Shown piece after piece: positions 2,436-42,020 of a DNA stretch of 64,000 bases. The translations under genes were made by a program, and so were the position numbers. The stretch is from PVC group bacterium (lineage in GTDB: Bacteria > Omnitrophota > Gorgyraeia > B26-G9): positions 449,210 through 513,209 of the forward strand of contig JAAEQR010000072.1 of assembly GCA_024231215.1 (NCBI GenBank). Reading direction: 5' to 3'. The notes beneath the pieces are model-generated. The model was given only the letters and a program-made list of their open reading frames with translations, ran no database searches and was not told where the DNA came from. Positions within the stretch are counted from its first letter, which is position 1. Every line of letters begins with the position of its first letter.

Positions 2436-5003
2436 GTGCGAAAAAAGGAGGGAATATTGTTTGCATTACAGAAAATTAAAAAAATAGATTTTATCCTGAT
2501 TGTTATTATTGTTTCAATGATCGTTATTGCTTATGGCAAAGTCATGGAAGCATCATTTCAGCAGGATGAATGGTATAGTCTGGCTAACTATCAGGTTACA
2601 AAAGATTTTTCTATAATGGAGACTATTCGGTACTTTACGCAAGGAGGGAATGTGTTCCCGCGGCCGCTAAGTTCATCTTTAAGCTTGATAAACTTTCGTT
2701 TATTTGGAATAAATTATGCTTTGTACTATGTTTGTTCTATTTTGACTCATATAGCTGTGAGCTTGTCTTTATATTATATTATTTTTGCTATGACCAAAAA
2801 GCGGGAACTTGCTTTCTTGACTGGGGTATTTTTTGCTATAAGTAGTACCGGTGCCCAGGCGATTACCTGGATAAGTGCCTATTTTGGGTCTGCTCAGTCT
2901 ACGTTTTTTGCTCTTTGGAGCCTGTTTTTTTACTTTAAATATCTTATTGGGGGGCAGGATAATAAGAAGCTGCAATATGCGGCAGTGGGATTGTTTTTAA
3001 TCGCAATATTATTTAAAGAGACTGTGGCTAATTTAATATTAATTTTCCCTTTCATGCACTTAATTCTTGCTAAGAAACGTGGATTGTTTGTTTTTTTAAA
3101 AGAACAGATTCCTTTATTAGTAACAATAGTTGGGTTTTTTCTGATTTTCTTTTCTCCTAGTTTTTTTAAAACTGCGGATAGTTCTATGGTGAGCCAAGCA
3201 GCTTCGGGGAGTAGTAATATAGCGGTATTATTATATCGTTCTGTTACTATTCCTTTTTCTGTTCTTGTTGATGTATATTTCCCTCCAGTATTCTTGTATA
3301 AGTGGAGTGCAATAATTACCCAGCTGGATCACCCATTTTTTTATTCTCAAAAAGGCACAAGTGTATATGATATTTTTATTGGATCAGCGGGGGCTAATCT
3401 AGTAACTTGCTATTTGCTATTAGGAATTTTATCATGTGTAGCGGGAGTATTGTCATATCTTAAAAAACACGATCAAAAGCTTTTTAATATTTTTTTAATT
3501 TTCTTTGGTTTTGTATTGACTGGCGGATTACCGCTTATTTTTGCGTATAGTGCTTCCTTTGCGGTTTTGGAATCAAGATATCTTTATTTGCCAGCAATTG
3601 GAGGAATGTTTATGCTGGCAGTAGCTGTAGATATTATGGGAAAGATGATTGGGAATTTATTTTCTGAAGATTGGAAGGAAACAGTCTATTATTGTTTGAT
3701 TGGTTTGCTTGCAATTGGTTTTTGTATTTTTAATATTCCAAAGATACGAGAGCCGATAAAAGAACTTGTGAGGATTTCTAAGGTGCGTAACTCTATTGTC
3801 GAAGGAATCGGTTCTAACTTGTCTCCTAAATCAAAAAGATTTTTTATTTATACTAAAAGCAATAGATCTTATTATGGGAAGGCTGAAACAATATTGCCAT
3901 TTCAGTGCGGAGCAGGGTATCTTTTGATGACAAGACATAGTATGAATAATGAAATGTTTATTCCGTTGTTGAAAGATAATCATTTATGGGATCTTACTAG
4001 TCAGGGAGTAGCTGAAGCTGACGGGATAGTTTTCGGATACTTCAGAGAATATCCTCTTTTTAAAAAAGCTATTTCAGAATATGAGGTAAAGGCTGAGGAA
4101 TTATATGCTTTTACTTGGGATGGGTATGCTGGGGAATTCGAAGATATTACTATCAGTGAGAGGCAACAGTTACAGGAAATCAAATACTATATAAATAAAG
4201 ATTTTGATAAAGATAGTTTGAAAATTGGTGTTCCAGATGGGAAGACTCGTCGTTTTTATTATGAAGGATTCATGTCTTCCCCGGTTGCAAAAATTGTTAA
4301 TCTTAAAAATGATAAAGAGTGGTTTTTTTGTGATTTTGCTAAAGGTGATGCTCGCAGACCTGAACCGAATACACAGGATTACTATTTAACCTATAAATAT
4401 GGGCTGGAAGATACTTATGGCGGAGCTTTAGTGGTCTATCATCTCTCAGGCAATGGGACAAATATTTATAGTATTCCCGGGGTAGTCTATGGTAAGCAGG
4501 TAGCTGGGTTGCATTATGCTCGAGCTTCGACTGGGGCTGTCCCGAAAAAGATTAGAAGAAAAAATGATGGAAGTATAGATATTGAGTTTGAAGCAACTTA
4601 TAATTCGGGGCAAGGGGTGCAGTTTGGAGCTTTACTTAATGAACCCGTTTTGTATTATATTCCCGGCAAAGGGGTCGAGGATATAGTTAAGGGGATGTAT
4701 GCAAAAGTTGAAGCTGACGGGAAGAAGAAGGCTTACGAGATAAGTTTGCCTGGGCAGCTGAAAACCTTGCGGTCATATTGGGAAAGTGATATATTAAGGT
4801 ATCAACCAAAGGCATTTATAGCCGGGAAAATGATACAAATTGTTAAATGGAGCGGATTAGAGACAAATACTTTGCGAATTGAATTTGCCCAGCCACCGGC
4901 AAAGGGAGCAGAAATTTTGGTTCCTTTGCTGGTTACTTATGCTCCTAAGCAAGAAGATGATAATATACTTATAATGAATTTTGCTGCTTGTGTTGCAAAA
5001 TAA
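2436..5003 (+). CDS. large polytopic membrane protein, putative GT-C-fold glycosyltransferase, with a C-terminal ~245-aa conserved soluble domain paralogous to the next gene
   Basis: About 11 predicted hydrophobic helices in the N-terminal 430 aa. D44-E45 (QQDEWYS, nt 2565-2570) immediately after TM1, as in the catalytic first loop of GT-C enzymes (ArnT/PMT-like). C-terminal domain (aa 598-845) is ~70% identical to aa 626-870 of the following ORF. Confidence 0.55.
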   Translation: MRKKEGILFALQKIKKIDFILIVIIVSMIVIAYGKVMEASFQQDEWYSLANYQVTKDFSIMETIRYFTQGGNVFPRPLSSSLSLINFRLFGINYALYYVCSILTHIAVSLSLYYIIFAMTKKRELAFLTGVFFAISSTGAQAITWISAYFGSAQSTFFALWSLFFYFKYLIGGQDNKKLQYAAVGLFLIAILFKETVANLILIFPFMHLILAKKRGLFVFLKEQIPLLVTIVGFFLIFFSPSFFKTADSSMVSQAASGSSNIAVLLYRSVTIPFSVLVDVYFPPVFLYKWSAIITQLDHPFFYSQKGTSVYDIFIGSAGANLVTCYLLLGILSCVAGVLSYLKKHDQKLFNIFLIFFGFVLTGGLPLIFAYSASFAVLESRYLYLPAIGGMFMLAVAVDIMGKMIGNLFSEDWKETVYYCLIGLLAIGFCIFNIPKIREPIKELVRISKVRNSIVEGIGSNLSPKSKRFFIYTKSNRSYYGKAETILPFQCGAGYLLMTRHSMNNEMFIPLLKDNHLWDLTSQGVAEADGIVFGYFREYPLFKKAISEYEVKAEELYAFTWDGYAGEFEDITISERQQLQEIKYYINKDFDKDSLKIGVPDGKTRRFYYEGFMSSPVAKIVNLKNDKEWFFCDFAKGDARRPEPNTQDYYLTYKYGLEDTYGGALVVYHLSGNGTNIYSIPGVVYGKQVAGLHYARASTGAVPKKIRRKNDGSIDIEFEATYNSGQGVQFGALLNEPVLYYIPGKGVEDIVKGMYAKVEADGKKKAYEISLPGQLKTLRSYWESDILRYQPKAFIAGKMIQIVKWSGLETNTLRIEFAQPPAKGAEILVPLLVTYAPKQEDDNILIMNFAACVAK
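4227..4965. repeat. copy A of a ~740-bp intergenic-distance duplication encoding a conserved soluble domain (paralogous to 6893-7628)
   Basis: Translated segments align colinearly: GVPDGKTRRFYYEGFMSSPVAK...QDYYLTYKYGLEDTYGG...HLSGNGTNIYS...LLNEPVLYYIPGKGV...LRSYW..DILRYQPKAFI...VTYAPKQED versus GIPDGESREFIKQGIMSCPVAK...QDYYLIYKYGFEDTYGG...VTYAPRQED. Confidence 0.8.
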
Positions 5004-8554: not shown

Positions 8555-9185
8555 TATTAGAAAACTTAATTATAAATATCTCGATAGCACAGTAAAGCAA
8601 TATTATAAGCCGCTTGTGAGAGGGCCGATGATTAAGCGGTTGCAACTGGCACTTATGCTTATAGGTGATGAAAAAAAGAAACGGTTACTTGATGTGGGGT
8701 TTGGGGGCGGTACATTTTTCCCGGAATTGAGTACTCGTTGTGAAGAACTTTTTGGTATAGATGTTCATCCTGAGATTGAAACAGTTAAAAAGATGTTGGA
8801 AAAAGAAGATATAAAGGCGGATATTTCTAATGGAAGTATTTTGAATATAGCTCACCCCGATGGTTTTTTTGATTGTGTTGTTTGTATGAGTGTTTTAGAG
8901 CATTTAGAAGGAGAAACATTAAAAAATGCTGTTCGGGAGATGTCGAGGGTTCTAGCTGTGAATGGAAAATGTATAATTGGAGTTCCGGTTAAAAATAAGA
9001 TTTCAGATGCTATAATAGACAAAATACTTAAATTTAAGCCGGATGAAATTCATCCTACAAGCCATTCGATGGCTTTAGATGCTTTAACTGAGTGTTTTGA
9101 TCTAAAGGAAGAGGTTCATTATCCTTTTTTTATGCCTCTTGATTGGTCGCTGTATACGGTTTTTTCATTTATTAAAAAACGCTAA
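8526..9185 (+). CDS. class I SAM-dependent methyltransferase
   Basis: Motif I LLDVGFGGGTFFPEL (hh[DE]hGxGxG). Post-I acidic residue FGIDV. Motif II/III region DCVVCMSVLEHL. Start overlaps the end of the upstream giant ORF, so the true start may be further downstream. Confidence 0.65.
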   Translation: MKIRIPQYDNIRKLNYKYLDSTVKQYYKPLVRGPMIKRLQLALMLIGDEKKKRLLDVGFGGGTFFPELSTRCEELFGIDVHPEIETVKKMLEKEDIKADISNGSILNIAHPDGFFDCVVCMSVLEHLEGETLKNAVREMSRVLAVNGKCIIGVPVKNKISDAIIDKILKFKPDEIHPTSHSMALDALTECFDLKEEVHYPFFMPLDWSLYTVFSFIKKR

Positions 9186-9238
9186 ATTAAGATCAAAGTA
9201 TTATAAGGAAATACTAGATTGTAAAAGAGGAGATAGTT

Positions 9239-9910
9239 ATGGGTGTAAGTATTATTATTCCAGCTAAAAATGAAGGTGAAGGAATTACTAGAATTTTAGA
9301 ATCTATAAAAGGTTATGCGAATGAAATTATAGTAGTTGATGGACATTCTCAGGATGGGACAAAAGAGAAAGTTGAAAAGTTTGGGGCAAAGTTTATTCTG
9401 GATAACAAAAAAGGCCGGGGTGATGCTGTTCGGGTAGCAATTAAAGCTGCCTCAGAGGATATAATTTTATTTTTCGATGCAGATGGATCTCACGATGATA
9501 AGGATGTTCTTAGTGTGTTAAAGCCATTGCAAGAAGGTAAAGCTGATATGGTAACCTGTTCTCGCCGTAAGGGTGGAAGTTTGGATATTAAAATGGATTT
9601 TCCCGGATTTATTCGGATGGTGGGTTGCGATATGCTTGCGATGCTTATTAATCTTCGTTGGAAATCAGATCTTTCGGATGTTCTGTATAGTTTTCGGGCT
9701 ATAAAGCGAGAGGTTATTCTAGATTTGAATTTAAAAGCTGACAAATTCTATATTGAGCAGGAAATGATTGTTAAAGCCCTCAAAAAGAAATATAAAATTA
9801 TTGAAATACCTAGCCGTGAGTTTGCTCGGGGGTGGGGGAACTCGAAATTATCTACATTTGAAGGGATTGAATTTTTCTTGCATTTTATTCGGGAAGCTTT
9901 ATTACCGTAA
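9239..9910 (+). CDS. family-2 glycosyltransferase, polyprenyl-phosphate sugar synthase type (DPM1/ArnC/GtrB-like)
   Basis: VSIIIPAKNEGEGI ... IIVVDGHSQDGT ... ILFFDADGSHD (DxD) is the classic small GT2 architecture of dolichyl/undecaprenyl-phosphate sugar transferases. AGGAG-type RBS upstream. Confidence 0.75.
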   Translation: MGVSIIIPAKNEGEGITRILESIKGYANEIIVVDGHSQDGTKEKVEKFGAKFILDNKKGRGDAVRVAIKAASEDIILFFDADGSHDDKDVLSVLKPLQEGKADMVTCSRRKGGSLDIKMDFPGFIRMVGCDMLAMLINLRWKSDLSDVLYSFRAIKREVILDLNLKADKFYIEQEMIVKALKKKYKIIEIPSREFARGWGNSKLSTFEGIEFFLHFIREALLP

Positions 9911-18571: not shown

Positions 18572-19993
18572 ATGAAAAAAAGTATTTATTTTATAATGGC
18601 CGGAGGCGAAGGGATGCGGCTATGGCCGATGAGTCGGTCTCATTTTCCGAAACAGTTACATTCTTTGTTGGGTAAAGAATCAATGCTACAACAGTCAATA
18701 GGCAGGCTTTTGAAAATAGCAGACCCAGAGAATATTCTTATCGGGACTCGGGAAGATTTATATTTTTCGGTTAAGGAGCAATGGGCAAATATGAATTTAA
18801 AAGCGGATCCGTGGTTGATTCTGGAGCCTTTAAGCCGGAATACAGCACCGGCAATTGCCTTGGCTATTCTTGCCTGCCGTGAAAGATTTGGAGAGGATGT
18901 AATAATTTCTACATTTGCGGCAGATCATGTAATTAAGGATAAAAAGAAATTTGAAGAGCTTTTGAAAACCGGGATACGGATTGCCCAAAAAGGACAGATT
19001 GTAACTTTTGGTATTGTGCCGGATTATCCGGAAACGGGATATGGTTATATAAAATCCGGAAAGAAAATCGAAAAAGATGTTTTTGAAGTGGCACAGTTCA
19101 AAGAAAAACCCTCTTTGCAGACAGCAGAGAAGTATGTAAAACAGGGTAATTATTTTTGGAACAGCGGCATGTTTATTTTTGATAGCGGAGTTGTTGCCGA
19201 AGCGTTAAAGAAGTTTTCGCCTGAGGTGTGGAAAACAGCTGAAAAAGTTTGGAAGGCAAAAAGAAAGAAGAACGGAGGAGTAGTTTTTCCTCAGAGTCTA
19301 TTTAGTAAATTTTCCAAAGTTTCTATAGATTATGCGGTTATGGAAAAGGCTTCCAAACTGGCTGTAATCAAGGCTGATTTTCGCTGGTGTGATGTTGGCT
19401 GCTGGCGTATGGTGCATGAGATGTCAGAGAAGGACAAAAACGGAAATGTTTTTTCCGGGAATATATTCAGCGTGGATTCAAGTCGCAGCTTTATAAAATC
19501 TGAGAAGCGTTTTGTTGCTGCGGTAGGGGTGCATGATTTGGTTGTTATTGATACACCTGATGCATTGCTTATTTCAGAGCAAGGTCGCAGTCAGGATGTG
19601 AAAAAAGTGGTAGAAAAGCTAAATGCTCAACAATCACAGTTGACAAAGTTTCATGCTACAGTATATAGGCCCTGGGGGAATTATACTGTACTTGAAGAAG
19701 GTCCGGGTTATAAAATTAAACGTATGGTTGTAAAACCAAAACAAAAACTGTCTTTACAAAAGCATAACTTTCGGAGTGAACATTGGGTAGTAATTTCAGG
19801 TAAAGCACGGATTATAAATGAACGCAATTCAATTCTGCTAAAAGCCAATGAGAGTATTTTTATTCGCAAAAAAGGAAAACATCGAATTATTAATCCGTAT
19901 AATACAGAGCTGGTAATTATCGAGGTTCAGACCGGAACAAATATAAGTGAAGATGACATCGTGAGATATGAAGATATTTACGAACGCATATAA
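18572..19993 (+). CDS. manC: mannose-1-phosphate guanylyltransferase / mannose-6-phosphate isomerase (bifunctional, C-terminal cupin)
   Basis: FIMAGGEGMRLWPMSRSHFPKQL nucleotidyltransferase motif. C-terminal cupin block GKARIINERNSILLKANESIFIRKKGKHRIINP. Confidence 0.85.
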   Translation: MKKSIYFIMAGGEGMRLWPMSRSHFPKQLHSLLGKESMLQQSIGRLLKIADPENILIGTREDLYFSVKEQWANMNLKADPWLILEPLSRNTAPAIALAILACRERFGEDVIISTFAADHVIKDKKKFEELLKTGIRIAQKGQIVTFGIVPDYPETGYGYIKSGKKIEKDVFEVAQFKEKPSLQTAEKYVKQGNYFWNSGMFIFDSGVVAEALKKFSPEVWKTAEKVWKAKRKKNGGVVFPQSLFSKFSKVSIDYAVMEKASKLAVIKADFRWCDVGCWRMVHEMSEKDKNGNVFSGNIFSVDSSRSFIKSEKRFVAAVGVHDLVVIDTPDALLISEQGRSQDVKKVVEKLNAQQSQLTKFHATVYRPWGNYTVLEEGPGYKIKRMVVKPKQKLSLQKHNFRSEHWVVISGKARIINERNSILLKANESIFIRKKGKHRIINPYNTELVIIEVQTGTNISEDDIVRYEDIYERI

Positions 19994-19999
19994 TAGAAA

Positions 20000-20029
20000 T
20001 TGGCAGGAATAAAAGAGATAAGGTATACT
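20000..20029 (+). promoter_or_regulatory. sigma-70-like promoter (TTGGCA, 18-nt spacer, TATACT) driving the structured RNA
   Basis: TTGGCA at 20000-20005, TATACT at 20024-20029, immediately after the manC stop. Confidence 0.4.
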
Positions 20030-20036
20030 TATAGTA

Positions 20037-20277
20037 AGGGTAAAAAATACATAATTTAACCTTTTTACTGAAAAGGCAAACCTCATGTGAGTGGGGGGCG
20101 TTCCGAAGAGTGGCTAGATATCGGGATCCCGAGAGCAATAAACCGTCATTATTTATAAGGTTATATCGGGGCAAAGCTGCGGGTCTAAAAGAGATATTTA
20201 GATAGCCGGGTTACCGAAAAGGAAGAGTGAGTAGCAAGCCACTAGAAGTCTGTGTAAAAGGTGGCTTGTTTTTTTTT
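20037..20277 (+). ncRNA. structured RNA (~240 nt) with c-di-GMP-I (GEMM) riboswitch-like sequence blocks, ending in an intrinsic terminator
   Basis: GGCAAACC (20074-20081), CGGGGCAAAGCUGCGGGUCUAAA (20167-20189) and GCCGGGUUACCGAAAAGG (20204-20221) resemble, from memory, the conserved blocks of the Vibrio cholerae Vc2 aptamer (GGCAAACC / CGCAAAGCC..CGG.CUAAA / GCGGGGUUACCGAUGG). The 5' half deviates: no clear GNRA-capped P2 and extra inserted hairpins. Confidence 0.4.
20236..20277 (+). terminator. rho-independent terminator (AAGCCAC ... GUGGCUU + U9)
   Basis: 7-bp GC-containing stem closing an 18-nt loop, followed by GTTTTTTTTT. Confidence 0.6.
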
Positions 20278-20403
20278 AATTCTTGCGTCTGTGACGAAAG
20301 AATTAAATCTCGCCAAGTTGTGTGGCGGATAGATGTGAAAGGAGGTGAGAAGACGGAGAGGATTAAGCTTAGCAGGAAGGGGGTGAACAAAGGGATAATT
20401 ATC

Positions 20404-20432
20404 TTGACAAACATTGAAATTTTTGATATATT
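20404..20432 (+). promoter_or_regulatory. near-consensus sigma-70 promoter for the pilin gene (TTGACA, 17-nt spacer, TATATT)
   Basis: TTGACA at 20404-20409 and TATATT at 20427-20432, ~55 nt upstream of the pilin ATG. RBS AAAGGGGGTGA precedes ATG 20486. Confidence 0.5.
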
Positions 20433-20485
20433 TTTAATAATTAGAAATCTGTATTTATTAAGTCTGTGAAAGGGGGTGAATAGTA

Positions 20486-20896
20486 ATGATTAATAAAAAA
20501 GGTTTTACATTGGTTGAGTTGTTGATGGTCGTTATCATCATTGGTATTTTAGTTACAATCGCTGTTCCTAACTATTTTAGGTCAATTGAAAGAGCAAAAG
20601 GTGGGAAGGCAAAAGCGGCAATAGATGTTATTAGAAAAGCATCTATACAATATAGAGCGTTGAATGATACTTTTCCACCTACTGATATTACTGAGTTAGA
20701 TGGTATGGAAATTCCGGGTAATATGACAGCAGCTACTCCTTTTGATGATGGAGATTGGCAGTATACAGTATCTGGAGATGCGACAACTGTATCAATTGTT
20801 GCAACGAGGAACGCGGGAGAACACAGCACAGAGACTTTAACGATGGACGTGGATGGAACGATCACGAATAGTGCTACTCCTAATGAATGGGATTGA
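20486..20896 (+). CDS. type IV pilin / prepilin with N-terminal cleavage-methylation domain
   Basis: MINKKGFTLVELLMVVIIIGILVTIAVPNYFRS: G-F-T-L-[V]-E class III signal peptide with Glu+5 and hydrophobic N-terminal helix. Confidence 0.85.
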   Translation: MINKKGFTLVELLMVVIIIGILVTIAVPNYFRSIERAKGGKAKAAIDVIRKASIQYRALNDTFPPTDITELDGMEIPGNMTAATPFDDGDWQYTVSGDATTVSIVATRNAGEHSTETLTMDVDGTITNSATPNEWD

Positions 20897-21042: not shown

Positions 21043-22125
21043 ATGCGGATAATTGCTATTGCTAATCAAAAAGGAGGATGCGGTAAAACAACAACAGCCA
21101 TAAATTTCTCTGCGTGTTTAGCTCAGGCAAAAAAGAATGTTTTGTTGATAGATTTGGATCCCCAGGGACATGCGACTTTAGGCTTAAATATAAAACATCA
21201 GGATGTGGATAAGAGCATGTATCATGTTTTGACACCGCAATCCGGTAAAAAAGTCAGACTGGACGAAATTATTTTACCTATTTCTCAGAATTTTGATCTA
21301 GCACCGGCGGATATTCTTTTGTCTGCGATTGAACAAGAACTTTCCGGTAAACCGGAACGGGAAGCTAAGCTGTATCAGGCAATTTCACTTATGGTAACAA
21401 AAAAAACCTATGATTATATTGTTATTGATTGTCCTCCTAGTTTGGGGCTTTTAACTTTTAATGCTTTGCGTGTTTCTGGGGAAGTTATTGCGCCTGTAGA
21501 GACCGGGTTTTTCTCTGTGCATGGGGTAAGTAAACTTTTAGAAATAGTAGATGTGATTGGAAAACGTTTAAAATGTGATATTGCTGTTAAAGCATTAATC
21601 ACATTATTTGATCGTCGCACTAAATTTTCTCAGGAAATAAAAGATGATATTTACAATCATTTTTCCGGACAGGTATTTAAATCTATAATTAATACAAATG
21701 TGCGATTAAAAGAAGCGGCAAGTTATGGTATGCCGGTTATTGCCTATGATAAGCGTTGTCGGGGTTCAGAAGATTATATGGCCTTGGCTAAAGAGGTAAT
21801 ACGTAAATATGATTGGACTAAACCAGAAACAGTGACGGAAACTGTTGGCGGGCCGCAACAAAGCAAAAGTGGAATATTGTTTACATATAGTTCTACCGAA
21901 GCAGGTTCTGTACAGATTGCAGGAGATTTTAATAACTGGGCAGCAGACCAAAAAGATAAATTAGAAACTACAAAAAAGGGTGTTTGGGCTAAAGTTTATA
22001 ATTTGAGGCCGGGGCGCTATCGTTATAAGTTTATTGTTGACGGACAATGGGTTACAGATCCTAATAATCCACAGACAGAAGCTGATGAAATTGGGAACTT
22101 AAATTCTTTACTAGAAATAAAGTGA
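21043..22125 (+). CDS. ParA/MinD-family deviant Walker-A ATPase fused to a C-terminal AMPK-beta / CBM48-type glycogen-binding domain
   Basis: IIAIANQKGGCGKTTTAINFSACLA (KGGxGKT deviant Walker A with signature Lys). ParA-like DLDPQG and VIDCPPS blocks. C-terminal ~85 aa FTYSSTEAGSVQIAGDFNNW...KGVWAKVYNLRPGRYRYKFIVDGQWVTDPNNP fit the AMPK-beta GBD/CBM48 pattern. GGGGAGG RBS. Confidence 0.75.
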   Translation: MRIIAIANQKGGCGKTTTAINFSACLAQAKKNVLLIDLDPQGHATLGLNIKHQDVDKSMYHVLTPQSGKKVRLDEIILPISQNFDLAPADILLSAIEQELSGKPEREAKLYQAISLMVTKKTYDYIVIDCPPSLGLLTFNALRVSGEVIAPVETGFFSVHGVSKLLEIVDVIGKRLKCDIAVKALITLFDRRTKFSQEIKDDIYNHFSGQVFKSIINTNVRLKEAASYGMPVIAYDKRCRGSEDYMALAKEVIRKYDWTKPETVTETVGGPQQSKSGILFTYSSTEAGSVQIAGDFNNWAADQKDKLETTKKGVWAKVYNLRPGRYRYKFIVDGQWVTDPNNPQTEADEIGNLNSLLEIK

Positions 22126-22142
22126 TAAGGTGTGTGTAAAAG

Positions 22143-23072
22143 TTGTCTATGAGCGATTCTAAAAAACTAGGTAAAAGTATAGAAGATATTTCGTATTTGT
22201 TTCTTTCTCCCTCTGGAGAAGATTCTTCCGAACCGGATGATTCTGGGCAGCAGGAAGAAAAAAGCACTTCTATTTTAGAGACTCCAATTAAGAGTATCTG
22301 CATGGTTGGTGGTGAATTTTCTTTTCTTGATGCTTTTCTGGTAATAAATTTATCGTTGGCACTGGCTCGTTTGGGCATGCGTATCGCAGTTGTCGATTTA
22401 GAACCGGAACGTCCTTGTTTGAATTTCTTTTTGGGAACTGATGGTCAAAAAGAAGATTCTAATAATATGAACACAGTTATCAAAGAAGGGCCTTTAGGTG
22501 TTAAACTTATTAGTTTAAATACATCTGCGCTTACGGAACTCTCAAACACCGCAAAGAATAGCAAACTGATTTCTCAATTGAATAAGATAGAAGAAGATGT
22601 GGATTTGATCCTGGTTAATGTTATGCAGCGTAATTTAATGAATATGCATGAGTTGTTGCCTGAGCAGATAAGAGAGTTTTTAGTGCTTACTTATCCGGAT
22701 AAAAATAAGATGATTGAATCTTATCGGACGATGAAGATGATTTCTCAACGTAATCCGTTAACTAAGATTGGTGTGGTTGTCGCTGAGGTAGATCACATGT
22801 ATGAGATAGATGCTGTTTATGATAAGATGTCCGGGGCAGTCAGGAAATTTTTAGATAAAGAGCTTTATAAGGGTGGTTTCTTATTTAAGATCAAGCAGGA
22901 TCTTGATGTTAATGCGACTATTGCATCGTTTTACGATGCAGATCTTACTGCTTGTATTTCAAATATAGCTCAGATTGTTGTTCTACGATTGAATTTAGGA
23001 GAAAATATTGTTTCAAAAGAAGCTTTTTTCAAGAAAATGATTGGCGGATTTAACGCGCAAAGGAAGTTATGA
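22143..23072 (+). CDS. degenerate ParA/MinD-fold paralogue lacking the P-loop (putative pseudo-ATPase partner)
   Basis: SICMVGGEFSFLDAFLVINLSLALARLGMRIAVVDLEPE aligns to the ParA N-terminus (ViaV.SgKGGvGKTT.A.NLa.aLa..Gk+VllIDlD), but GKGGxGKT is replaced by GGEFSF. 18-nt gap after the ParA gene. Confidence 0.45.
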   Translation: MSMSDSKKLGKSIEDISYLFLSPSGEDSSEPDDSGQQEEKSTSILETPIKSICMVGGEFSFLDAFLVINLSLALARLGMRIAVVDLEPERPCLNFFLGTDGQKEDSNNMNTVIKEGPLGVKLISLNTSALTELSNTAKNSKLISQLNKIEEDVDLILVNVMQRNLMNMHELLPEQIREFLVLTYPDKNKMIESYRTMKMISQRNPLTKIGVVVAEVDHMYEIDAVYDKMSGAVRKFLDKELYKGGFLFKIKQDLDVNATIASFYDADLTACISNIAQIVVLRLNLGENIVSKEAFFKKMIGGFNAQRKL

Positions 23073-23746
23073 CCACTATTTTTCGCAAAGCACAAATAGA
23101 TAGAGATAAATTAAGAGATGTAATATTAAAAAACCCCGGAGATATTCAGTCGGAACTTGGTTTTATTGATTTTCAGTTTGGAACGGCAGAAGAAGGGGTT
23201 ATAGATTTCTTGGGTGTAGATAGTACCGGAAGACTGGTTATTATAAATTTCGATACAAAAGAAAACGATGAATTGTTAGTAACGGCATTGAGTCAGATGC
23301 GCTGGTTGAAAAAAAATGAAAACCTTGTGAAGCGGGTATTTTTTAGTGAAAATGTTGATTTCAATCAAGATCCCTTGATCCTGCTTATTTGTCCGGGGTT
23401 TTCCAGGAAATTAATTTCTGCGGCTAAAGAGCTGAGCGGGCATGATCTGAGATTTGTCCAATTTCAATATGTTATCTCGGATGCCCAGGATGCAATATTA
23501 TTTGAGGATATATTTAGCCAGCAGAAACCCGAGATAGAAGATCTTCCAATGCAAAATATTGAAAGTTTAAAGCCGCCAACAATTTTAGAAGAAGTGAAAG
23601 TAACAGATAATTCTATAGTAGATACTACTGTAGAGCTAACAGAAATATCTCCAGAGCAAGAGGAGATTATTTCTCTGACACAGCAAGAGATTGCTGAATT
23701 TATGGATTTCGATAAAATTTTAGAAGAAAAACAGACTTCGGATTAA
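23069..23746 (+). CDS. hypothetical protein, possible PD-(D/E)xK nuclease-like core with strongly acidic C-terminal tail
   Basis: ATGA overlap with the upstream gene. VIDFLGVDSTGRLVIINFDTKEND resembles the D...(D/E)xK strand pattern of restriction-endonuclease-like folds (NucS/YraN-like). C-terminal 90 aa is rich in E/D. Confidence 0.3.
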   Translation: MTTIFRKAQIDRDKLRDVILKNPGDIQSELGFIDFQFGTAEEGVIDFLGVDSTGRLVIINFDTKENDELLVTALSQMRWLKKNENLVKRVFFSENVDFNQDPLILLICPGFSRKLISAAKELSGHDLRFVQFQYVISDAQDAILFEDIFSQQKPEIEDLPMQNIESLKPPTILEEVKVTDNSIVDTTVELTEISPEQEEIISLTQQEIAEFMDFDKILEEKQTSD

Positions 23747-23754
23747 ACCTTCCT

Positions 23755-24504
23755 GTGCAAAGCCAAAACAAATTCATATCTCTGAAAAAAACAGTAAATT
23801 ATTATCAGATAGAAGATGTTAGATTTCCAAATCTTATGTGTGTATTCTCAACGCGCATATTTGATTATAGTTTACATGAAGATTTAGGTGTTCGCCAAAG
23901 CTTTTTTATTGAACTGGGTTTAAAAATAGAGGATAGTATTTTTTTAGAACAGCCCCATCAGGCGAGAGTTTTTAGAGCTAAGAAAGAAGACAGGGGGAAA
24001 GGCGCGGTTGATTTTTATACTCGAGTTCCCGGATGTGATGCGGTGATAACCGAAGAGCCTGGGACAGCTTTATGTTTGTTGACGGCTGATTGTCTGCCTT
24101 TGTTTTTTTTCGTTCCGGGTGAAAAAGTTTTAGGGATTGCTCATGCGGGATGGCGTGGGACTCAGGCGAAAATTGCAGAGACAACAGTAAATAAACTATG
24201 TCAAGAATTCGATTGTTTTGCCGAAAAAATATGTGTTTATATTGGTCCGGGAATAGGCCCCTGTTGTTATCGCGTAGGGAAAGAGTTAAGAGATGTATTT
24301 CCTGATTTTGTTAAAACTCAAAGAGATGGTTTGTATTTTGATCTTGCCGCGGCGAATACTGAGCAATTAGTTGAATTCGGGATAAATAGAGAAAACATTT
24401 ACAGTACAGGACTTTGCACTAGTTGCAAAAATGATAAATTTTTCTCTTATCGTCGGGGGGATAAAATGAAACGTATGCTAAGTGTAGCAATGTTAAAGCC
24501 ATAA
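23755..24504 (+). CDS. pgeF: PgeF/YfiH family (DUF152, laccase-domain) purine nucleoside enzyme / peptidoglycan editing factor; GTG start
   Basis: LTADCLPLFF...LGIAHAGWRGT...IGPGIGPCCYRVG are the conserved Cys/His zinc-ligand blocks of YfiH. Confidence 0.8.
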   Translation: MQSQNKFISLKKTVNYYQIEDVRFPNLMCVFSTRIFDYSLHEDLGVRQSFFIELGLKIEDSIFLEQPHQARVFRAKKEDRGKGAVDFYTRVPGCDAVITEEPGTALCLLTADCLPLFFFVPGEKVLGIAHAGWRGTQAKIAETTVNKLCQEFDCFAEKICVYIGPGIGPCCYRVGKELRDVFPDFVKTQRDGLYFDLAAANTEQLVEFGINRENIYSTGLCTSCKNDKFFSYRRGDKMKRMLSVAMLKP

Positions 24505-34218: not shown

Positions 34219-35880
34219 ATGCTGACTTTTTATAAAAGTTCGGTAGGGATTTATATAGGCCCTAAATCAATACAGTTGGCTCAGTTGAAGTCAGTGGCCG
34301 GCCGTATTCAATTGACTAACTTTGTTCACGTTGATATTCTCGAGGATGAAATTAGCTCTGAATCAGCTACCCAAGAGTCTCTCATTCATAATGCTCTCCG
34401 CAAAGCCGTTAATAAAGCTAAAATTGATCTAAAAAAAGTTAATACTGTACTTATGCCTGGAATGGTGTTGTTGCGCTATTTCCAAATGCCTAAGATTTCT
34501 GCCGAAGAGATGGAAGAAGCAGTTCGATTTGAAGCAAGGAAATATATTCCTTTTCGTTTAGAAGAAGCAGTAACCGGATTCTATATTCTTAAAGATGATC
34601 CGGAAAACAGAAAAGTAGGGATTCTTTCTTTAGTTACCAAAGAAGAATCTATAAAAAATCATTTATCTGTCCTGAATAAAGTAAACATCAATCCAGTAGC
34701 AGTGGAAACTGCGTCTTTTGCGCTTATCCGTCTTTTAGAATATTCTCAAGAAATAGAAAAGGAAGAGTCGAATGTAGTAATATACATTTATGCTCAGAGA
34801 GTAAATATTGTTATTTTAAAAAATGGAGTACCGTATTTTGTAAGAGATATCTCTTTGGGCAGAAGAGAAGAATGGCTAGATGATGAGACCGCAGCATTAC
34901 TTTTGGAGGATGGTGGAGAGATGTCTGATAGTCGGATGGCTATTTTAGAGAATCTCTTAAGTGAACTTCGAATTTCCCTTGAATATTATAAAAAAGAATT
35001 AGGAAAAGAGCAAATAAATAAGGTGATCTTGTGTGGTGAAATAGATGATTTTGATGATTTGGAAGTTGTTGCTCAAGCGGCACAAGAAGAACCGGACGCT
35101 GAATCACCTTTATCTGTATATTTGAAAAAGAAATTGAACTTACCGGTTGTTACCATAGATCCTCTTAAAACCATTCAAACTCCCAAAGCAAAACCTTTGC
35201 CATATACATTTCCGATGCTGGCAATAACCGTTGGTGCTGCGCTAAGAAATCTTACCAAATCCACAGTAGAAATAGACCTTTTTAAAGCGCGGAAAAAGAC
35301 AAGTATAAAAAAGAAGATTTTTATTAATAAAATGATGGTTATTGAAGGGTCAGCTTTGCTTATAAGTCTTATTGTTCTGTTTTTTCTGTTTTCCATTTTT
35401 GTTTCAAATGAAAAAAGTCTTTTGGAAAAAGAAAAACAAAATAGGCCTAAGTTTATGGAGCTAAGCCATTTTAAAAATAAACAGTTGAAAGAGGGCGAAA
35501 AGCAGATTGATAAACGCTTAAAAAAATACAAAGCAATGGTTTCAAAAAGAGTTTATCTTACCCCTAAATTAAATGTTTTAGCCAAATCTGTCCCCAAGGG
35601 TATCTGGTTCTCAGACTTAAACTATGGTGTGATAAAGATTCCTGGGAAAGGGAAGCAAAAGATAGGAAAAATTTTAAAGTTAAGTGGCAGGGTTTTTGTT
35701 GAGAAAAAAGGAACAGAGATTGAAATAATAAATAAATTAACAGAGGATTTGAAGAAGAACGAAGACTTTTTTGAGGGCTTTAAGGTTATAAAGACAGGTT
35801 CTGTAAAGAGAGAAGAATATATGGTCATCCCTGTAATGGGATTTTCCTTGCAGTGTTCTTCGGATATTTCAGGACAATAG
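34219..35880 (+). CDS. pilM: type IV pilus assembly protein PilM fused to a PilN-like TM/periplasmic module
   Basis: N-terminal ~350 aa actin-like ATPase fold, PilM pattern (IGPKSIQLAQLK...). Single TM MMVIEGSALLISLIVLFFLF at aa ~378-397, followed by a ~150-aa periplasmic region as in PilN. Confidence 0.7.
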   Translation: MLTFYKSSVGIYIGPKSIQLAQLKSVAGRIQLTNFVHVDILEDEISSESATQESLIHNALRKAVNKAKIDLKKVNTVLMPGMVLLRYFQMPKISAEEMEEAVRFEARKYIPFRLEEAVTGFYILKDDPENRKVGILSLVTKEESIKNHLSVLNKVNINPVAVETASFALIRLLEYSQEIEKEESNVVIYIYAQRVNIVILKNGVPYFVRDISLGRREEWLDDETAALLLEDGGEMSDSRMAILENLLSELRISLEYYKKELGKEQINKVILCGEIDDFDDLEVVAQAAQEEPDAESPLSVYLKKKLNLPVVTIDPLKTIQTPKAKPLPYTFPMLAITVGAALRNLTKSTVEIDLFKARKKTSIKKKIFINKMMVIEGSALLISLIVLFFLFSIFVSNEKSLLEKEKQNRPKFMELSHFKNKQLKEGEKQIDKRLKKYKAMVSKRVYLTPKLNVLAKSVPKGIWFSDLNYGVIKIPGKGKQKIGKILKLSGRVFVEKKGTEIEIINKLTEDLKKNEDFFEGFKVIKTGSVKREEYMVIPVMGFSLQCSSDISGQ

Positions 35881-35899
35881 AGTAATTTTATAATAAGGA

Positions 35900-36445
35900 T
35901 TGAGAAATATGATAGGGTCAGGGTTTTCTTTACCTAAAGAAATTAAAAACACATTAGCTATTGGTGTTACTATTTTTGTTGTTGTTCTCTTTTTTGGCGG
36001 GCGGTTTATATATAAACGGAGTTTGAAGAAATTAATCGGATACAAAAAACAACGTTCTCGTGTAGAATTGGAGAATAAGGTTGGAAAAAAACTAGCTGAA
36101 CTGCAAAAGATTCGTGAGAATATGCCTATAATTAAAGAAAGTGCTCATTTTTTATCGGAAGTTGCGAAAGTAGCGGGTGCGCTTAATATGAACATGGTTT
36201 CAATATCAGCTCAACCGGTTGAGAGAAGAAAAGATATGGTGAAATTTTCCGTGCAGATGGAACTGGATACCACATATCATCAACTCGGGGCGTTTATTAG
36301 TAAGATAGAAGGGGGCGATTTATTTGTCAACGTGGATGCATTGGATATTAGGTCTAAATCTAATCAGGAAACAACGAAGGCTGCGATTGTAGCAGAGATA
36401 ACTGTGCATACCTTTTATTTGACAGATACTGATTTGGAGAAATAA
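35900..36445 (+). CDS. pilO: PilO-like type IV pilus inner-membrane assembly protein
   Basis: N-terminal TM (LAIGVTIFVVVLFFGG), coiled-coil, ~100-aa C-terminal domain. Position between pilMN and pilP/Q. Confidence 0.5.
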   Translation: MRNMIGSGFSLPKEIKNTLAIGVTIFVVVLFFGGRFIYKRSLKKLIGYKKQRSRVELENKVGKKLAELQKIRENMPIIKESAHFLSEVAKVAGALNMNMVSISAQPVERRKDMVKFSVQMELDTTYHQLGAFISKIEGGDLFVNVDALDIRSKSNQETTKAAIVAEITVHTFYLTDTDLEK

Positions 36446-36915
36446 TGAGGAAAACATTTGCAATTTTACTTACAGTTATATTTATTTTTTCGCTAGCAGC
36501 ATCTATTGATGCTGCTCCTAAAAAGAGTAAGAAGAAAAGTAAAAAAGAAACGTCAAAAAACATCGGTAAAAAACAACATGGTGCAATAAAATACACAGGT
36601 TTTGAGGCAAAACGTGATCCATTCGGTGTGCCAGCGATAATTGAGAAGATGCTTCTAAAGCCAGATATAGCTATTGGTGCGGGGCAAGAAGAAGTAATTA
36701 AACTTCCATCGATATTTGTGCAAGGGATTATCTGGTCTAAAAGAAGGCCTCAGGCTATTGTAGATAATAATGTGCTGAAGGTGGGCGATTATATTAAAGA
36801 ATTTGAGATAAAAGAAATAAAAAGAAAAAGCATTGAATTATTTTATAAAGGAAAGACATTTTCTGTGCCTGTAGCAGGTACAAGTTCTACAAGTAAAAGT
36901 AAAAGTAAAAAATAA
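36445..36915 (+). CDS. PilP-like periplasmic protein with signal peptide and K/S-rich low-complexity segments
   Basis: Signal peptide MRKTFAILLTVIFIFSLAASIDAA. Small beta-rich C-terminal domain. Position immediately upstream of the secretin. Confidence 0.4.
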   Translation: MRKTFAILLTVIFIFSLAASIDAAPKKSKKKSKKETSKNIGKKQHGAIKYTGFEAKRDPFGVPAIIEKMLLKPDIAIGAGQEEVIKLPSIFVQGIIWSKRRPQAIVDNNVLKVGDYIKEFEIKEIKRKSIELFYKGKTFSVPVAGTSSTSKSKSKK

Positions 36916-36932
36916 AGATAAGGAGTGTAAAG

Positions 36933-38567
36933 ATGAAAAGGATTTTCAGGTTACTGGTATTTGTTTTATGCCTATGCCTTATCGGGGTTTTGACTCCATT
37001 GCCGATGCTTTTAGCGCAGGCTACGTATGAGATTGAAGACGATGCTGATATTTCAGAATCTGAACTGGAAGATGATGGATTGGTATCGTTGGATTTTAAG
37101 GATGCGAATCTAAAAGATGTCTTAAAAGTCTTTTCACAACAGTCTGGCTTAAATTTTGTGGCAACACAAAATATTCAGGATAGACCGGTAACTCTTTACA
37201 TGGAAGAGGTTAAAGTTGAGAATGCATTACAGGCGTTACTAGCCTCAAATAATCTAGGTTTGGAACAGTCTCCGGGGAGCAATATTATTATTGTTAAGGC
37301 TCAGCCTGTTCCCCCGGTACAAACAAAAACTAAAGTGTATAAAATGCGTTATTTTCACGGGAACGTTTCTCCCGGACAATATCTTATGCAAAAGGGAAGT
37401 GTTGCTCAGGGGAGCGGGATGAATTGGGAAGCGATTATACGTCCTTTATTGAGCGAAGTAGGCACTTTGGTGAATTATGCTAATTTATTGGTTATTACTG
37501 ATGTTCCCGCTAGATTTAAACTTATTGACCAGGTGATCGCGGAGATTGATCGGCCGATTCCTGAAGTAATGTTAGAAGTGGAATTGATTGAAACAACTTC
37601 GGATTTCTTAAAAGATGTGGGGGTAAAATGGGGCAAAGAATTTGCTAAATTTACCGGGCCTAGTACTATTAGCTCGATGCCTTATGCTCATTGGAAAAAA
37701 CCTGGTAATGAAGGGTATATGCTACCAAGCAGTATGGCGGATGGTACACGTTTTCAATACGGATTGATGAGTTCTGCAGGGCTTAGTTTTCTTCTGGAAA
37801 TGCTTGAATCAGATACCAGTACAAAATTTTTATCAAAACCGAGAATACTTTGTCAGGATCGGGAATGGGCAGAAATCAAAATAACAGCGAATCAGATAGT
37901 TTCAATTAAGACTACGGTAACAGAGACAACTACGGAAACAGAAGTAGAAAGAATGGAAGTAGGAACAATTTTAAGGATTGTGCCGTTAATCAATGAAGAA
38001 GAGGGATTTGTATCATTGCTCTTAGAGCCTAGTATTTCACGACCAAAAGATTCTCCATTTACAGCTCCTGCGGCAATGGGGGGAGCAAATTATGTTGATC
38101 CGCAAAAACGCAGTATGAGAACAACGGTTATGATTAGAGATGGCGATACGGTTGCGGTAGGAGGTTTTATTACTACAGAAGACCAGGAGAGTTCGACTAA
38201 AGTTCCTTGGTTAGGTGATATTCCTTTATTTGGGATGTTTTTTAGACATAAGTCAATAGACAGGATAGATAAAGAGCTTATGATTTTTATTACGCCTAAG
38301 ATTATACGGCCGACAGATAGGATGGAGATGTGGGTTGATAATGTATCTACAGGCGGGGAACAATCAATGGCGGCTAAGCCTGTTGAAAAAGAAGATAAAT
38401 CTGAAAAGCTAATAGAAAAACTTAAGATCGAATCTAAAGCTAAACAAGAACCGGTAGCAATCAAACCCCAGCCGGTTAAAGCGCTTCCCTTTAGAGAGCA
38501 GGACGATTTAAAGTTAGATCTTACAATGCAAAGCCCGGGAATGATCGGTGTAGATTTATTAAAGTAA
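36933..38567 (+). CDS. pilQ: type IV pilus secretin PilQ
   Basis: Signal peptide. Secretin C-domain RDGDTVAVGGFITTEDQESSTKVPWLGDIPLFGMFFRHKSIDRIDKELMIFITPKII. Confidence 0.85.
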   Translation: MKRIFRLLVFVLCLCLIGVLTPLPMLLAQATYEIEDDADISESELEDDGLVSLDFKDANLKDVLKVFSQQSGLNFVATQNIQDRPVTLYMEEVKVENALQALLASNNLGLEQSPGSNIIIVKAQPVPPVQTKTKVYKMRYFHGNVSPGQYLMQKGSVAQGSGMNWEAIIRPLLSEVGTLVNYANLLVITDVPARFKLIDQVIAEIDRPIPEVMLEVELIETTSDFLKDVGVKWGKEFAKFTGPSTISSMPYAHWKKPGNEGYMLPSSMADGTRFQYGLMSSAGLSFLLEMLESDTSTKFLSKPRILCQDREWAEIKITANQIVSIKTTVTETTTETEVERMEVGTILRIVPLINEEEGFVSLLLEPSISRPKDSPFTAPAAMGGANYVDPQKRSMRTTVMIRDGDTVAVGGFITTEDQESSTKVPWLGDIPLFGMFFRHKSIDRIDKELMIFITPKIIRPTDRMEMWVDNVSTGGEQSMAAKPVEKEDKSEKLIEKLKIESKAKQEPVAIKPQPVKALPFREQDDLKLDLTMQSPGMIGVDLLK

Positions 38568-38584
38568 TTATTGAAAGATAGAAA

Positions 38585-40276: not shown

Positions 40277-40358
40277 TCTGCAATCAATATTCCTTTCCCA
40301 AATAAGTGATTATATAGTATATTAGTAATAGATATTAATAAGAAAAGAGAACTTTAAA

Positions 40359-41597: not shown

Positions 41598-41618
41598 TAA
41601 TTTAAGGAGGCGGTTATA

Positions 41619-42020
41619 ATGCGTAGTAAAGGTTTTTCATTAGTTGAGTTGGTATTGGTTGTTTTGGTAATTGCGATACTGGTTAGTATTTCAGTTCCAA
41701 CATATTTTCAAACTGTAGAAAGAGCTAGAGCGCGAGAGGCCAGGGCTACGTTGGAGTCAATGTTTGCAGCACAGCGTAGTTATTCTGCAGAACGCAGAAC
41801 ATTTATTGATTTGCCTCAGGCGAGTAATCCTGAATGGTTGGCAGTTGGTTTGGAAAATCCCAATCTCAATACTAATAGGGCGTTTGATTATTCTTTGGAT
41901 GAGACAGGAGGCAATGCTTTTGATGCAACTGCTACACGGCGCAGTGGGTATAATGCAGGAGAGATTATCGAAATTGACGAAACCGGTGCGGAGACTGCAA
42001 GTACTAATTGGACTCCGTAG
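41619..42020 (+). CDS. second type IV pilin / pseudopilin (prepilin N-terminal cleavage-methylation domain)
   Basis: MRSKGFSLVELVLVVLVIAILVSISVPTYFQ. RBS AAGGAGG. Confidence 0.8.
   Translation: MRSKGFSLVELVLVVLVIAILVSISVPTYFQTVERARAREARATLESMFAAQRSYSAERRTFIDLPQASNPEWLAVGLENPNLNTNRAFDYSLDETGGNAFDATATRRSGYNAGEIIEIDETGAETASTNWTP

Follow-up and report, generated by a model that had tools for sequence, protein, structure and literature searches.

A predicted class I c-di-GMP riboswitch with a two-hairpin insertion and a candidate antiterminator upstream of a pilin gene in Omnitrophota

Why would a pilin gene that has a promoter of its own be preceded by another promoter, a short RNA and an intrinsic terminator? 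This question is raised by an intergenic region between a ManC-type gene and a prepilin-type gene in a PVC group bacterium (Omnitrophota; Gorgyraeia; B26-G9; GenBank assembly GCA_024231215.1, contig JAAEQR010000072.1, positions 449,210 to 513,209 of the forward strand). We refer to this whole stretch of 64,000 nucleotides (nt) as the window, and coordinates are positions in it unless a relative is named. A preliminary description, made from the letters alone, had recognized in the RNA some blocks resembling the GEMM-I motif, the class I aptamer for cyclic dimeric guanosine monophosphate (c-di-GMP), and had left the choice between a divergent riboswitch, a tandem or variant aptamer, and an unrelated small RNA. 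Our results indicate that the region very probably contains one complete GEMM-I aptamer (20060-20222) with a variant architecture, which serves as a riboswitch. The variant part is an insertion of two hairpins, hp1 and hp2. The best explanation of the whole, to which we give a probability of about 0.6, is an expanded GEMM-I riboswitch in which the loop of hp1 is an antiterminator and c-di-GMP turns read-through into the pilin gene ON.

The identity of the RNA was examined with Rfam models. RF01051, the c-di-GMP-I family, is the sole non-tRNA family above its gathering score in the whole window, with 36.4 bits against 35 (E=0.0018) at 20149-20218; the pass is marginal, and the alignment covers the 3' hairpin alone and collapses the 5' hairpin. 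A permissive search gives a separate RF01051 match to the 5' half (20065-20107, 20.6 bits, model positions 1-37), which consists of AAAAGGCAAACC followed by CCUCAU-GUGA-GUGGGG, and about 70 nt lie between the two Rfam halves. The three GEMM-like blocks noticed earlier, GGCAAACC (20075-20082), CGGGGCAAAGCUGCGGGUCUAAA (20167-20189) and GCCGGGUUACCGAAAAGG (20205-20222), are all present where they had been placed. Rfam also lists GGC and UAU variants of c-di-GMP-I. Membership in either variant family was rejected, because RF03168 reaches 16.3 bits in the window and RF03167 26-29.5 bits in relatives (with the GGC model, 29.5 bits for locus L001 and 26.1 bits for L111), far under the gathering scores of 59 (RF03167) and 65.9 bits (RF03168). 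Other RNA families searched in 19950-20520 at E up to 10, among them the 6S and signal recognition particle RNAs whose models had been proposed for a check, gave only noise. The earlier impression of a highly pairable RNA was not borne out: for 20037-20285 the z-score of the minimum free energy (MFE) is -0.78, and the aptamer by itself gives -0.32. As the folding energy is ordinary for the composition, the case for the aptamer rests on homology and covariation.

Taken as one aptamer, the two Rfam halves and the sequence between them resolve into the following parts, in which the ligand contacts G20, A47 and C92 are numbered after the Vc2 structure.

20060-20066 (+): 5' strand of the closing helix P1, CCUUUUU, pairing with 20216-20222
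20075-20080 (+): GGCAAA block, from the Rfam alignment; G20075 is the equivalent of G20; invariant in the clade
20076-20077/20171-20172 (+): stem P2a of 2 base pairs (bp), G20076-C20172 and C20077-G20171
20078-20080 (+): internal loop AAA
20081-20096 (+): GNRA hairpin P2b, CCUCAU-GUGA-GUGGGG, with a 6-bp stem (20081-20086/20091-20096) and a GUGA loop (20087-20090)
20097-20099 (+): spacer GGC, the 3' side of the internal loop
20100-20170 (+): insertion of 71 nt between P2b and P2a, made up of G, hp1 and hp2
20100-20127 (+): hp1, stem GUUCCGA (20100-20106) with UCGGGAU (20121-20127), from the MFE structure and RNAalifold
20107-20120 (+): 14-nt loop of hp1, AGAGUGGCUAGAUA
20128-20170 (+): hp2, stem CCCGA (20128-20132) with UCGGG (20166-20170), from the MFE structure and RNAalifold
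20171-20172 (+): 3' strand of P2a, GC, directly before the AAA linker
20173-20175 (+): AAA linker; A20173 is the equivalent of A47; invariant in the clade
20175-20212 (+): hairpin P3 (P2 in Rfam), with the conserved CUAA and AGCC bulge elements, aligned with high posterior probability
20213-20215 (+): ACC; C20214 is the equivalent of C92
20216-20222 (+): 3' strand of P1, GAAAAGG, pairing with 20060-20066

In GEMM RNAs, the GNRA-capped helix is built of a 2-bp and a 6-bp stem with a 3-nt internal loop, and the AAA linker between the two hairpins is nearly invariant (Weinberg 2007, PMC1950547). The insertion is predicted to turn this GNRA-capped helix into a four-way junction, only two base pairs from the ligand pocket. 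There is no spacer between hp2 and its neighbors, hp1 on one side and P2a on the other. The base that follows G[GA]C varies among the members (G, A or C), which argues for closure of the 2-bp stem by the GC beside the AAA and not by that base. The insertion is also the reason why the Rfam match is split or relatives are missed: in the relatives, Rfam aligns the element as a single aptamer whose P1 carries an insert of 97-103 nt, and they score 37-41 bits to RF01051 when aligned in this way (41.4 bits for L103) and otherwise stay below the threshold. The preliminary description had held that the 5' half deviates from GEMM-I in two respects, of which one stands, since the extra hairpins exist as an insertion after the GNRA hairpin, whereas the GNRA hairpin that was thought to be absent is there, capped by GUGA at 20081-20096.

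Relatives of the element were collected in two ways. Homologues of the gene for a ParA/CBM48 protein led to nine syntenic loci (L001, L103, L104, L107, L108, L109, L111, L113 and L115), and a metagenome scan with the pattern GGCAAACC-N70-100-GCAAAGCNNNGGNYCTAA led to 22 loci, of which two (L083 and L101) belong to the same clade and about 15 are more distant with the same layout; three are ordinary or tandem aptamers that serve as contrasts. The true tandem arrangements met with this pattern (L087, L088 and L094) are of a different appearance and reach 64-78 bits per aptamer. For the nine syntenic sequences, RNAalifold recovered P2b, hp1, hp2 and P3, with compensatory changes at 12 of 32 pairs. 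A MAFFT alignment of eight sequences has 97.5% of its cells paired and double changes at nine pairs, while only 26-50% pair in a control where the partners are slid by 1-3 columns. Furthermore, a covariance model built from the clade alignment (R1) recovers all variant members at 37-190 bits. In an alignment of 30 sequences, whose pair counts are inflated because it was fitted to R1, double changes occur at 20 of 30 pairs, including every pair of hp1 (5 of 5 modelled pairs covary, 95% of cells paired) and of hp2 (4 of 4, 96%).

The individual helices tell a similar story. Within the clade, compensatory changes are found at 4 of the 6 pairs of P2b, whose tetraloop is GNRA (GYRA-type), and double changes at 2 of the 4 pairs of hp2. 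P3, with 13 pairs, is 95% paired in the clade and has three pairs with double changes there and seven in the 30-sequence set; its compensatory changes in the clade include CGG/CCG to CAG/CUG and AGCU/GGUU to AAUC/GAUU. P2a keeps its G-C and C-G pairs in each of the 30 aligned sequences, and P1 has more than one sequence solution, namely CCUUUU/AAAAGG in the window, L103, L108, L104 and L111, and ACCAU(AA)UU/AA(AA)AUGGU in L001, L083 and L107. Thus, the homologous intergenic regions of the relatives hold a conserved structure with compensatory changes.

The two separate partial Rfam matches and their marginal scores might be read as two decayed half-aptamers, or as a riboswitch disrupted by inserted sequence and no longer functional. 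However, the split architecture recurs in lineages whose proteins are 37-73% identical, as well as in metagenome contigs that are unrelated, and compensatory changes are seen in every helix, the inserted ones included. In addition, all 19 non-redundant inserts fold alone as G[GA]C plus two hairpins that abut each other exactly and end at the GC of P2a (19/19). We find decay or disruption hardly credible in view of this. Of the options left by the preliminary description, a tandem aptamer is contradicted by the single set of conserved blocks, the single closing helix and the covariation of the inserted hairpins, and an unrelated small RNA is not supported either. The option that agrees with Rfam matches in both halves and with helix covariation is a c-di-GMP-I riboswitch of divergent or variant form, placed ahead of a pilin gene with its own promoter.

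Some members of the family have peculiarities of their own. L104 was considered as a decayed aptamer and this was rejected, as its true 5' half was found about 75 nt further upstream. In this locus (about 860-1140), the GNRA tetraloop is replaced by an extra insertion of about 80 nt, so that insertions exist at two sites, and the conserved CCCUUUUGCAGAUAAAGGCAAACC is set apart from the remainder, about 75 nt upstream. The contig of L096 (SDBU01000001.1) holds two insertion-bearing GEMM-I copies about 5 kb apart, at 4091-4312 (-) and 9157-9333 (-). An AU-rich motif of the form UAUUAUAAAUAU or AUAAUAUAUAAAAUAU is present in the hp2 loop of every clade member and of L113; in the window, this loop (20140-20165) carries it as UAUUUAUAA.

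Which ligand would such an aptamer bind? G20075, A20173 and C20214, the equivalents of G20, A47 and C92, fall at matching model positions and are invariant in the clade, as judged by comparing sequence identity alone. GEMM-Ib, the type of GEMM-I that recognizes cyclic GMP-AMP (cGAMP), has A and not G at position 20. A cGAMP riboswitch was rejected given the G at 20075 and in all clade members, and because position 20 is G, not A, the predicted ligand is c-di-GMP rather than cGAMP. It could still be argued that the RNA responds to something else, either 3'3'-cGAMP as in GEMM-Ib or a new ligand accommodated by the remodelled junction. No more than two base pairs separate the insertion from the ligand pocket, altered specificity is known among GEMM-I variants (GEMM-Ib), and the GGC variant model is sometimes the best-scoring one in relatives. 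However, all three contact positions are canonical and clade-invariant and the scores for RF03167 and RF03168 are far below gathering, and we regard another ligand as very unlikely.

The next question is what the aptamer would control. An intrinsic terminator had been predicted to end the RNA, and it is found with an 11-bp stem and a U9 tract reaching 20277. It begins 11 nt after P1 and does not overlap the aptamer. The features concerned, and the pairing between hp1 loop and terminator arm in each lineage, are as follows.

20233-20277 (+): intrinsic terminator, 11-bp stem (20233-20243/20260-20270), 16-nt loop, dG -14.8 kcal/mol
20109-20115 (+): proposed antiterminator AGUGGCU in the hp1 loop, exact complement of AGCCACU at 20237-20243
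Window: loop AGUGGCU, arm AGCCACU
L103: loop AGGUGGC, arm GCCACUU
L083: loop UCGGUU(U)GG, arm CCAACCGA
L104 and L115: loop UCGGAGUU, arm AACU(A)CCGA
L111: loop UCGGUAUU, arm AAUACCGA
L113: loop CGGUGAC, arm GUCACCG

The 5' arm of the terminator (20233-20243) reads AGCAAGCCACU, and its U9 tract covers 20269-20277; a simple terminator scan with a loop limit of 8 nt misses it on account of the 16-nt loop. All relatives have the terminator at the same position, in two sequence types. The AGUGGCU of the hp1 loop also nearly repeats the terminator 3' arm. In the window, the duplex of loop and 5' arm has an energy of -11.5 kcal/mol (RNAduplex), which is equalled by 0 of 2000 loop shuffles, and in 12 of 12 clade members the corresponding duplexes lie between -10.1 and -15.3 kcal/mol, with loop-shuffle p-values from <0.0005 (window) to 0.085. 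When the whole RNA was searched for partners of the loop, the terminator 5' arm came out best in nine of nine transcripts. Moreover, loops pair better with the arms of their own transcripts than with those of others (cognate -12.6 versus permuted -9.3 +/- 0.84 kcal/mol, permutation p=1e-4). No loop-arm signal was obtained from the distant members of the variant class, which have other expression platforms; they serve as a negative control, and the pairing test is therefore not biased to positives. Because pairing of loop and arm excludes the terminator hairpin, the hp1 loop, although housed inside the aptamer, probably acts as an antiterminator by forming a long-range pseudoknot with the terminator arm.

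A near-repeat, identical at 11 of 13 positions, links GAAGAGUGGCUAG (20105-20117, the 5' strand and loop of hp1, which contains the antiterminator) with GAAGAGUGAGUAG (20222-20234, the linker after P1). This similarity may reflect the origin of the antiterminator. Other pairings were tried and rejected. Pairing of the hp2 loop with the terminator U tract is significant only in the L001 subgroup (window p=0.77), and that of the P1 5' strand with a copy of AAAAGG in the terminator loop is not significant (p 0.04-0.9). By inspection, a four-strand alternative of the hp1 and hp2 stems (UCGGGA with UCCCGA) is possible in the window and impossible in L001-type relatives. A TATAAT-like internal promoter in the hp2 loop was also rejected on inspection, since the window does not have the motif and no -35 element stands at a suitable distance.

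The distant members seem to be organized in another way. In eight of their loci (L089, L095, L096, L099, L086, L090, L091 and L098), a second near-copy of the aptamer 3' strand (e.g. GAUAGCCGAGCUACCGAA) is the terminator 5' arm, which, judged from the repeated strand, suggests an expression platform of the strand-swap kind. The terminator arm of type B in the clade, ACCGAGCUAUC, resembles this near-copy arm, and several of the distant near-copy loci are followed by prepilin-like genes.

How might ligand binding be coupled to the terminator? We infer the coupling step and its direction as follows. From the first promoter, an RNA of about 240 nt would be made, which would function as a transcriptional GEMM-I riboswitch ahead of the pilin gene. 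Binding of c-di-GMP would close P1 and fix the four-way junction, and the fixed junction would pre-position the hp1 loop and stabilize it against the 3' tail, where its target lies 5-14 nt beyond P1. The antiterminator would then hold, and RNA polymerase would cross the spacer into the pilin gene, which makes this an ON switch. When no ligand is present, the more stable terminator hairpin would win. Read-through would in this way add a c-di-GMP-dependent part to pilin transcription, beyond what the gene's own promoter supplies. Provided that the hp1 loop antiterminates, the ON direction is slightly favored for two reasons. First, in most lineages the helix of loop and arm leaves the upper terminator stem as a toehold, so that it needs stabilizing help. 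Second, the PilB-type ATPase of a pilus cluster in the window (38585-40276) carries an MshEN domain, and MshEN domains are a family that binds c-di-GMP and activates pilus assembly; such an ATPase fits a role of c-di-GMP in raising pilin supply.

The same RNA and the same pairing could also give an OFF switch. By default the loop would capture the terminator 5' arm and permit read-through, and c-di-GMP, by closing P1, would reel in the 3' tail or bury the loop, thereby freeing the arm and causing termination. Only 5-14 nt lie between P1 and the target, and a closed P1 could put the target out of reach, while pairing of loop and arm is geometrically unconstrained as long as P1 is open. Furthermore, both polarities occur in homologous cyclic-dinucleotide riboswitches (PMC9262584), and some c-di-GMP-I riboswitches, Vc2 for example, are reported as OFF switches (bioRxiv 10.1101/617340). 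However, the free toehold would lead to fast displacement of the loop-arm helix unless the ligand stabilized it, and an MshEN-type pilus ATPase fits c-di-GMP as a promoter of piliation. We hence consider an OFF switch rather unlikely.

Several points weigh against an ON riboswitch with an hp1 antiterminator. Besides the inflated pair counts noted above, the independent lineages behind the covariation effectively number about 6-9, and the loop-shuffle p-values are modest in L109 (0.085) and L115 (0.05). In thermodynamic terms, the duplex of loop and arm is weaker than the terminator hairpin (about -15 kcal/mol). The usual competition for the 3' strand of P1 or P3 was looked for and not found, nor was a conserved alternative partner able to tie up the hp1 loop in one of the ligand states; after the terminator arm, the loop pairs best with the P3 3' strand or the junction (-7 to -12 kcal/mol), and this choice varies from lineage to lineage. 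A further point is that the pilin gene has a strong promoter of its own. Finally, L113 (= L114; 1450-1712), a syntenic relative whose ParA-CBM48 protein is 66% identical, is without the GEMM core, and the antitermination module may work, or be regulated, independently of c-di-GMP.

L113 deserves a closer look in this respect. It has no Rfam match at E up to 0.1 and only 29 bits to R1. What it retains is the promoter, the terminator, a Shine-Dalgarno-like motif and a hairpin that resembles hp2 and shares its AU-rich loop motif. A segment of L113 resembling the antiterminator is complementary to the terminator arm of the same locus (p = 0.002). The whole has the look of a leader naturally devoid of its sensor. 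From this comparison, the putative antitermination module can exist without the sensor. That L113 lacks the sensor yet retains the module strengthens the case that the module is functional, and also makes an input other than c-di-GMP possible. It is tempting to speculate that the inserted hairpins are a self-contained antitermination module nested in the sensor, controlled by the ligand through the geometry of the four-way junction and able to outlive the aptamer; this idea is tentative.

The position of the element with respect to its neighbors bears on its output, and the features of the locus are these.

19994-20485: intergenic region between the ManC-type gene (18572-19993) and the prepilin-type gene (20486-20896)
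20000-20029 (+): first promoter, -35 TTGGCA (20000-20005), 18-nt spacer, -10 TATACT (20024-20029), 10/12 consensus matches
20278-20403 (+): read-through spacer, which would be transcribed solely on read-through
20404-20432 (+): pilin promoter P2, TTGACA at 20404, 17 nt, (TG)aTATATT to 20432, 11/12 matches, TG extension
20486-20896 (+): prepilin-type gene, 136 amino acids, N-terminal methylation motif (PF07963, TIGR02532)

Both promoters had been proposed before, one just after the manC stop and a near-consensus one for the pilin gene, and both are confirmed and conserved in relatives. Transcription from the first is predicted to start near 20036. Its equivalent, TTGGCA-N17/18-(G)GTATAAT, lies 35-67 nt upstream of the aptamer GGCAAAC block in L001, L101, L107, L108 and L109, and the promoter is also kept in L103. 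The pilin promoter is kept as CTTGACA-N17-TGATAWAT in L103, L001, L104, L107, L108, L109, L106 and L113. The order of ManC gene, element, pilin gene and ParA-CBM48 gene is kept among relatives, with orientation and position of the element strict in all of them, and the pilin gene is the likely regulated gene. Its 136-residue product has partial GspG/PilA-like matches, and an exact-sequence look-up in the sequence collection gave no match. The spacer between terminator and pilin promoter is about 125 nt long, and the pilin start codon lies about 200 nt past the terminator. A hairpin in the spacer, CGCCA..UGGCG at about 20312-20328, is conserved, and a Shine-Dalgarno-like GAAAGGAGGUG lies at 20339-20347, with a second copy at about 20377-20385.

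The first promoter and the strong terminator with its U9 tract could also define a stand-alone small RNA, that is, an aptamer that always ends at 20277 and binds c-di-GMP as a small RNA or sponge, or acts in trans, while pilin is made from its own promoter. That P2 is near consensus and conserved and that about 200 nt lie between terminator and start codon would agree with this, and a GEMM-I riboswitch is present in Bdellovibrio as a short RNA of high abundance. However, the covarying complementarity of loop and arm makes sense only if termination is modulated, synteny and orientation with pilin are strict in all relatives, and the spacer has conserved elements as well. A small RNA without read-through seems quite improbable to us on these grounds, and we keep to a riboswitch that modulates termination ahead of pilin.

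Some further features of the surroundings were noted. In the interval from terminator to pilin promoter, GAAAGGAGGUG(A) is a perfect Shine-Dalgarno-like match conserved in L103, L104, L106-L109, L111, L113 and L115; it is sometimes in two copies, stands amid several GGA motifs, and in several relatives is preceded by a long conserved hairpin. A small open reading frame after GAAAGGAGGUG was rejected, as inspection of the relatives showed no consistent start codon or frame. Downstream of the pilin gene, at 21043-24504 and in all syntenic loci, is a conserved block of genes. Its products are a ParA-type ATPase with a fused CBM48/AMPK glycogen-binding domain, a protein similar to MinD/ParA, a 225-residue protein without family, and a Cu-oxidase_4 (YfiH-type) protein. 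The pilus cluster mentioned above is of the type IV pilus or type II secretion-like kind and lies at 34219-42020, with PilM, PilO, secretin and PilC; it includes a second prepilin gene (41619-42020), which no GEMM element precedes.

Known systems offer partial parallels. Clostridioides difficile likewise has a c-di-GMP riboswitch directly before its major type IV pilin gene, Cdi2_4 of pilA1, which is based on termination and reported as an ON switch. It differs in aptamer class (class II, pseudoknotted) and phylum, and we know of no second promoter between that riboswitch and the pilin gene. The expression platforms of the Geobacter pilM cGAMP riboswitch (GEMM-Ib) and of C. difficile Cd1 compete for the 3' strand of P1 or P3, whereas the terminator in the window overlaps neither strand, and the G at position 20 contrasts with the A of GEMM-Ib. 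As is predicted for our RNA, both use the GEMM-I fold to control an intrinsic terminator, and they form an ON/OFF pair with homologous aptamers, pilM being in a pilus-gene context (PMC9262584). Canonical RF01051 aptamers such as Vc2 of Vibrio cholerae, of the 'GYRA-tetraloop, no receptor' type (PMC1950547), share with the window the conserved blocks, the equivalents of G20, A47 and C92, the association with pilus genes and a terminator-type expression platform. In contrast to them, the window aptamer has the 71-nt two-hairpin insertion and a four-way junction, its terminator stays off the aptamer 3' strand, and its candidate antiterminator sits in a peripheral aptamer loop. Bc1 of Bacillus thuringiensis is also a class I c-di-GMP riboswitch with an elaborate, extended expression platform; the complexity there is reported to be downstream of the aptamer, with two terminators 28 bp apart (PMC11218506), whereas the extra elements of the window are nested inside the aptamer.

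The element belongs to a riboswitch class that is already known, and its gene context, that of pili, is a familiar one as well. Its four-way-junction architecture and the antiterminator in a peripheral aptamer loop appear to be undescribed: in the literature, which we covered incompletely so that novelty is not proven, we found no four-way-junction or insertion-bearing GEMM-I and no Omnitrophota riboswitch. From the marginal or subthreshold Rfam scores, the curated model does not seem to include the insertion. Few riboswitches have been studied as well as those of class I for c-di-GMP, whose fold is regarded as a fixed three-helix junction. A widespread natural subclass with a four-way junction would be largely missed or half-detected by the Rfam model, and as a result c-di-GMP regulons would be under-annotated in uncultivated phyla such as Omnitrophota. 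If the pairing of loop and terminator is true, it would couple aptamer and terminator without strand exchange in the closing helix, which would be relevant to the mechanism and design of riboswitches, and if the nested module is true, it would add a new type to the expression platforms of riboswitches. For the organism itself, the element would link c-di-GMP to pilin supply in a little-known phylum, and the pilus ATPase of the same genome also carries a domain of a c-di-GMP-binding type.

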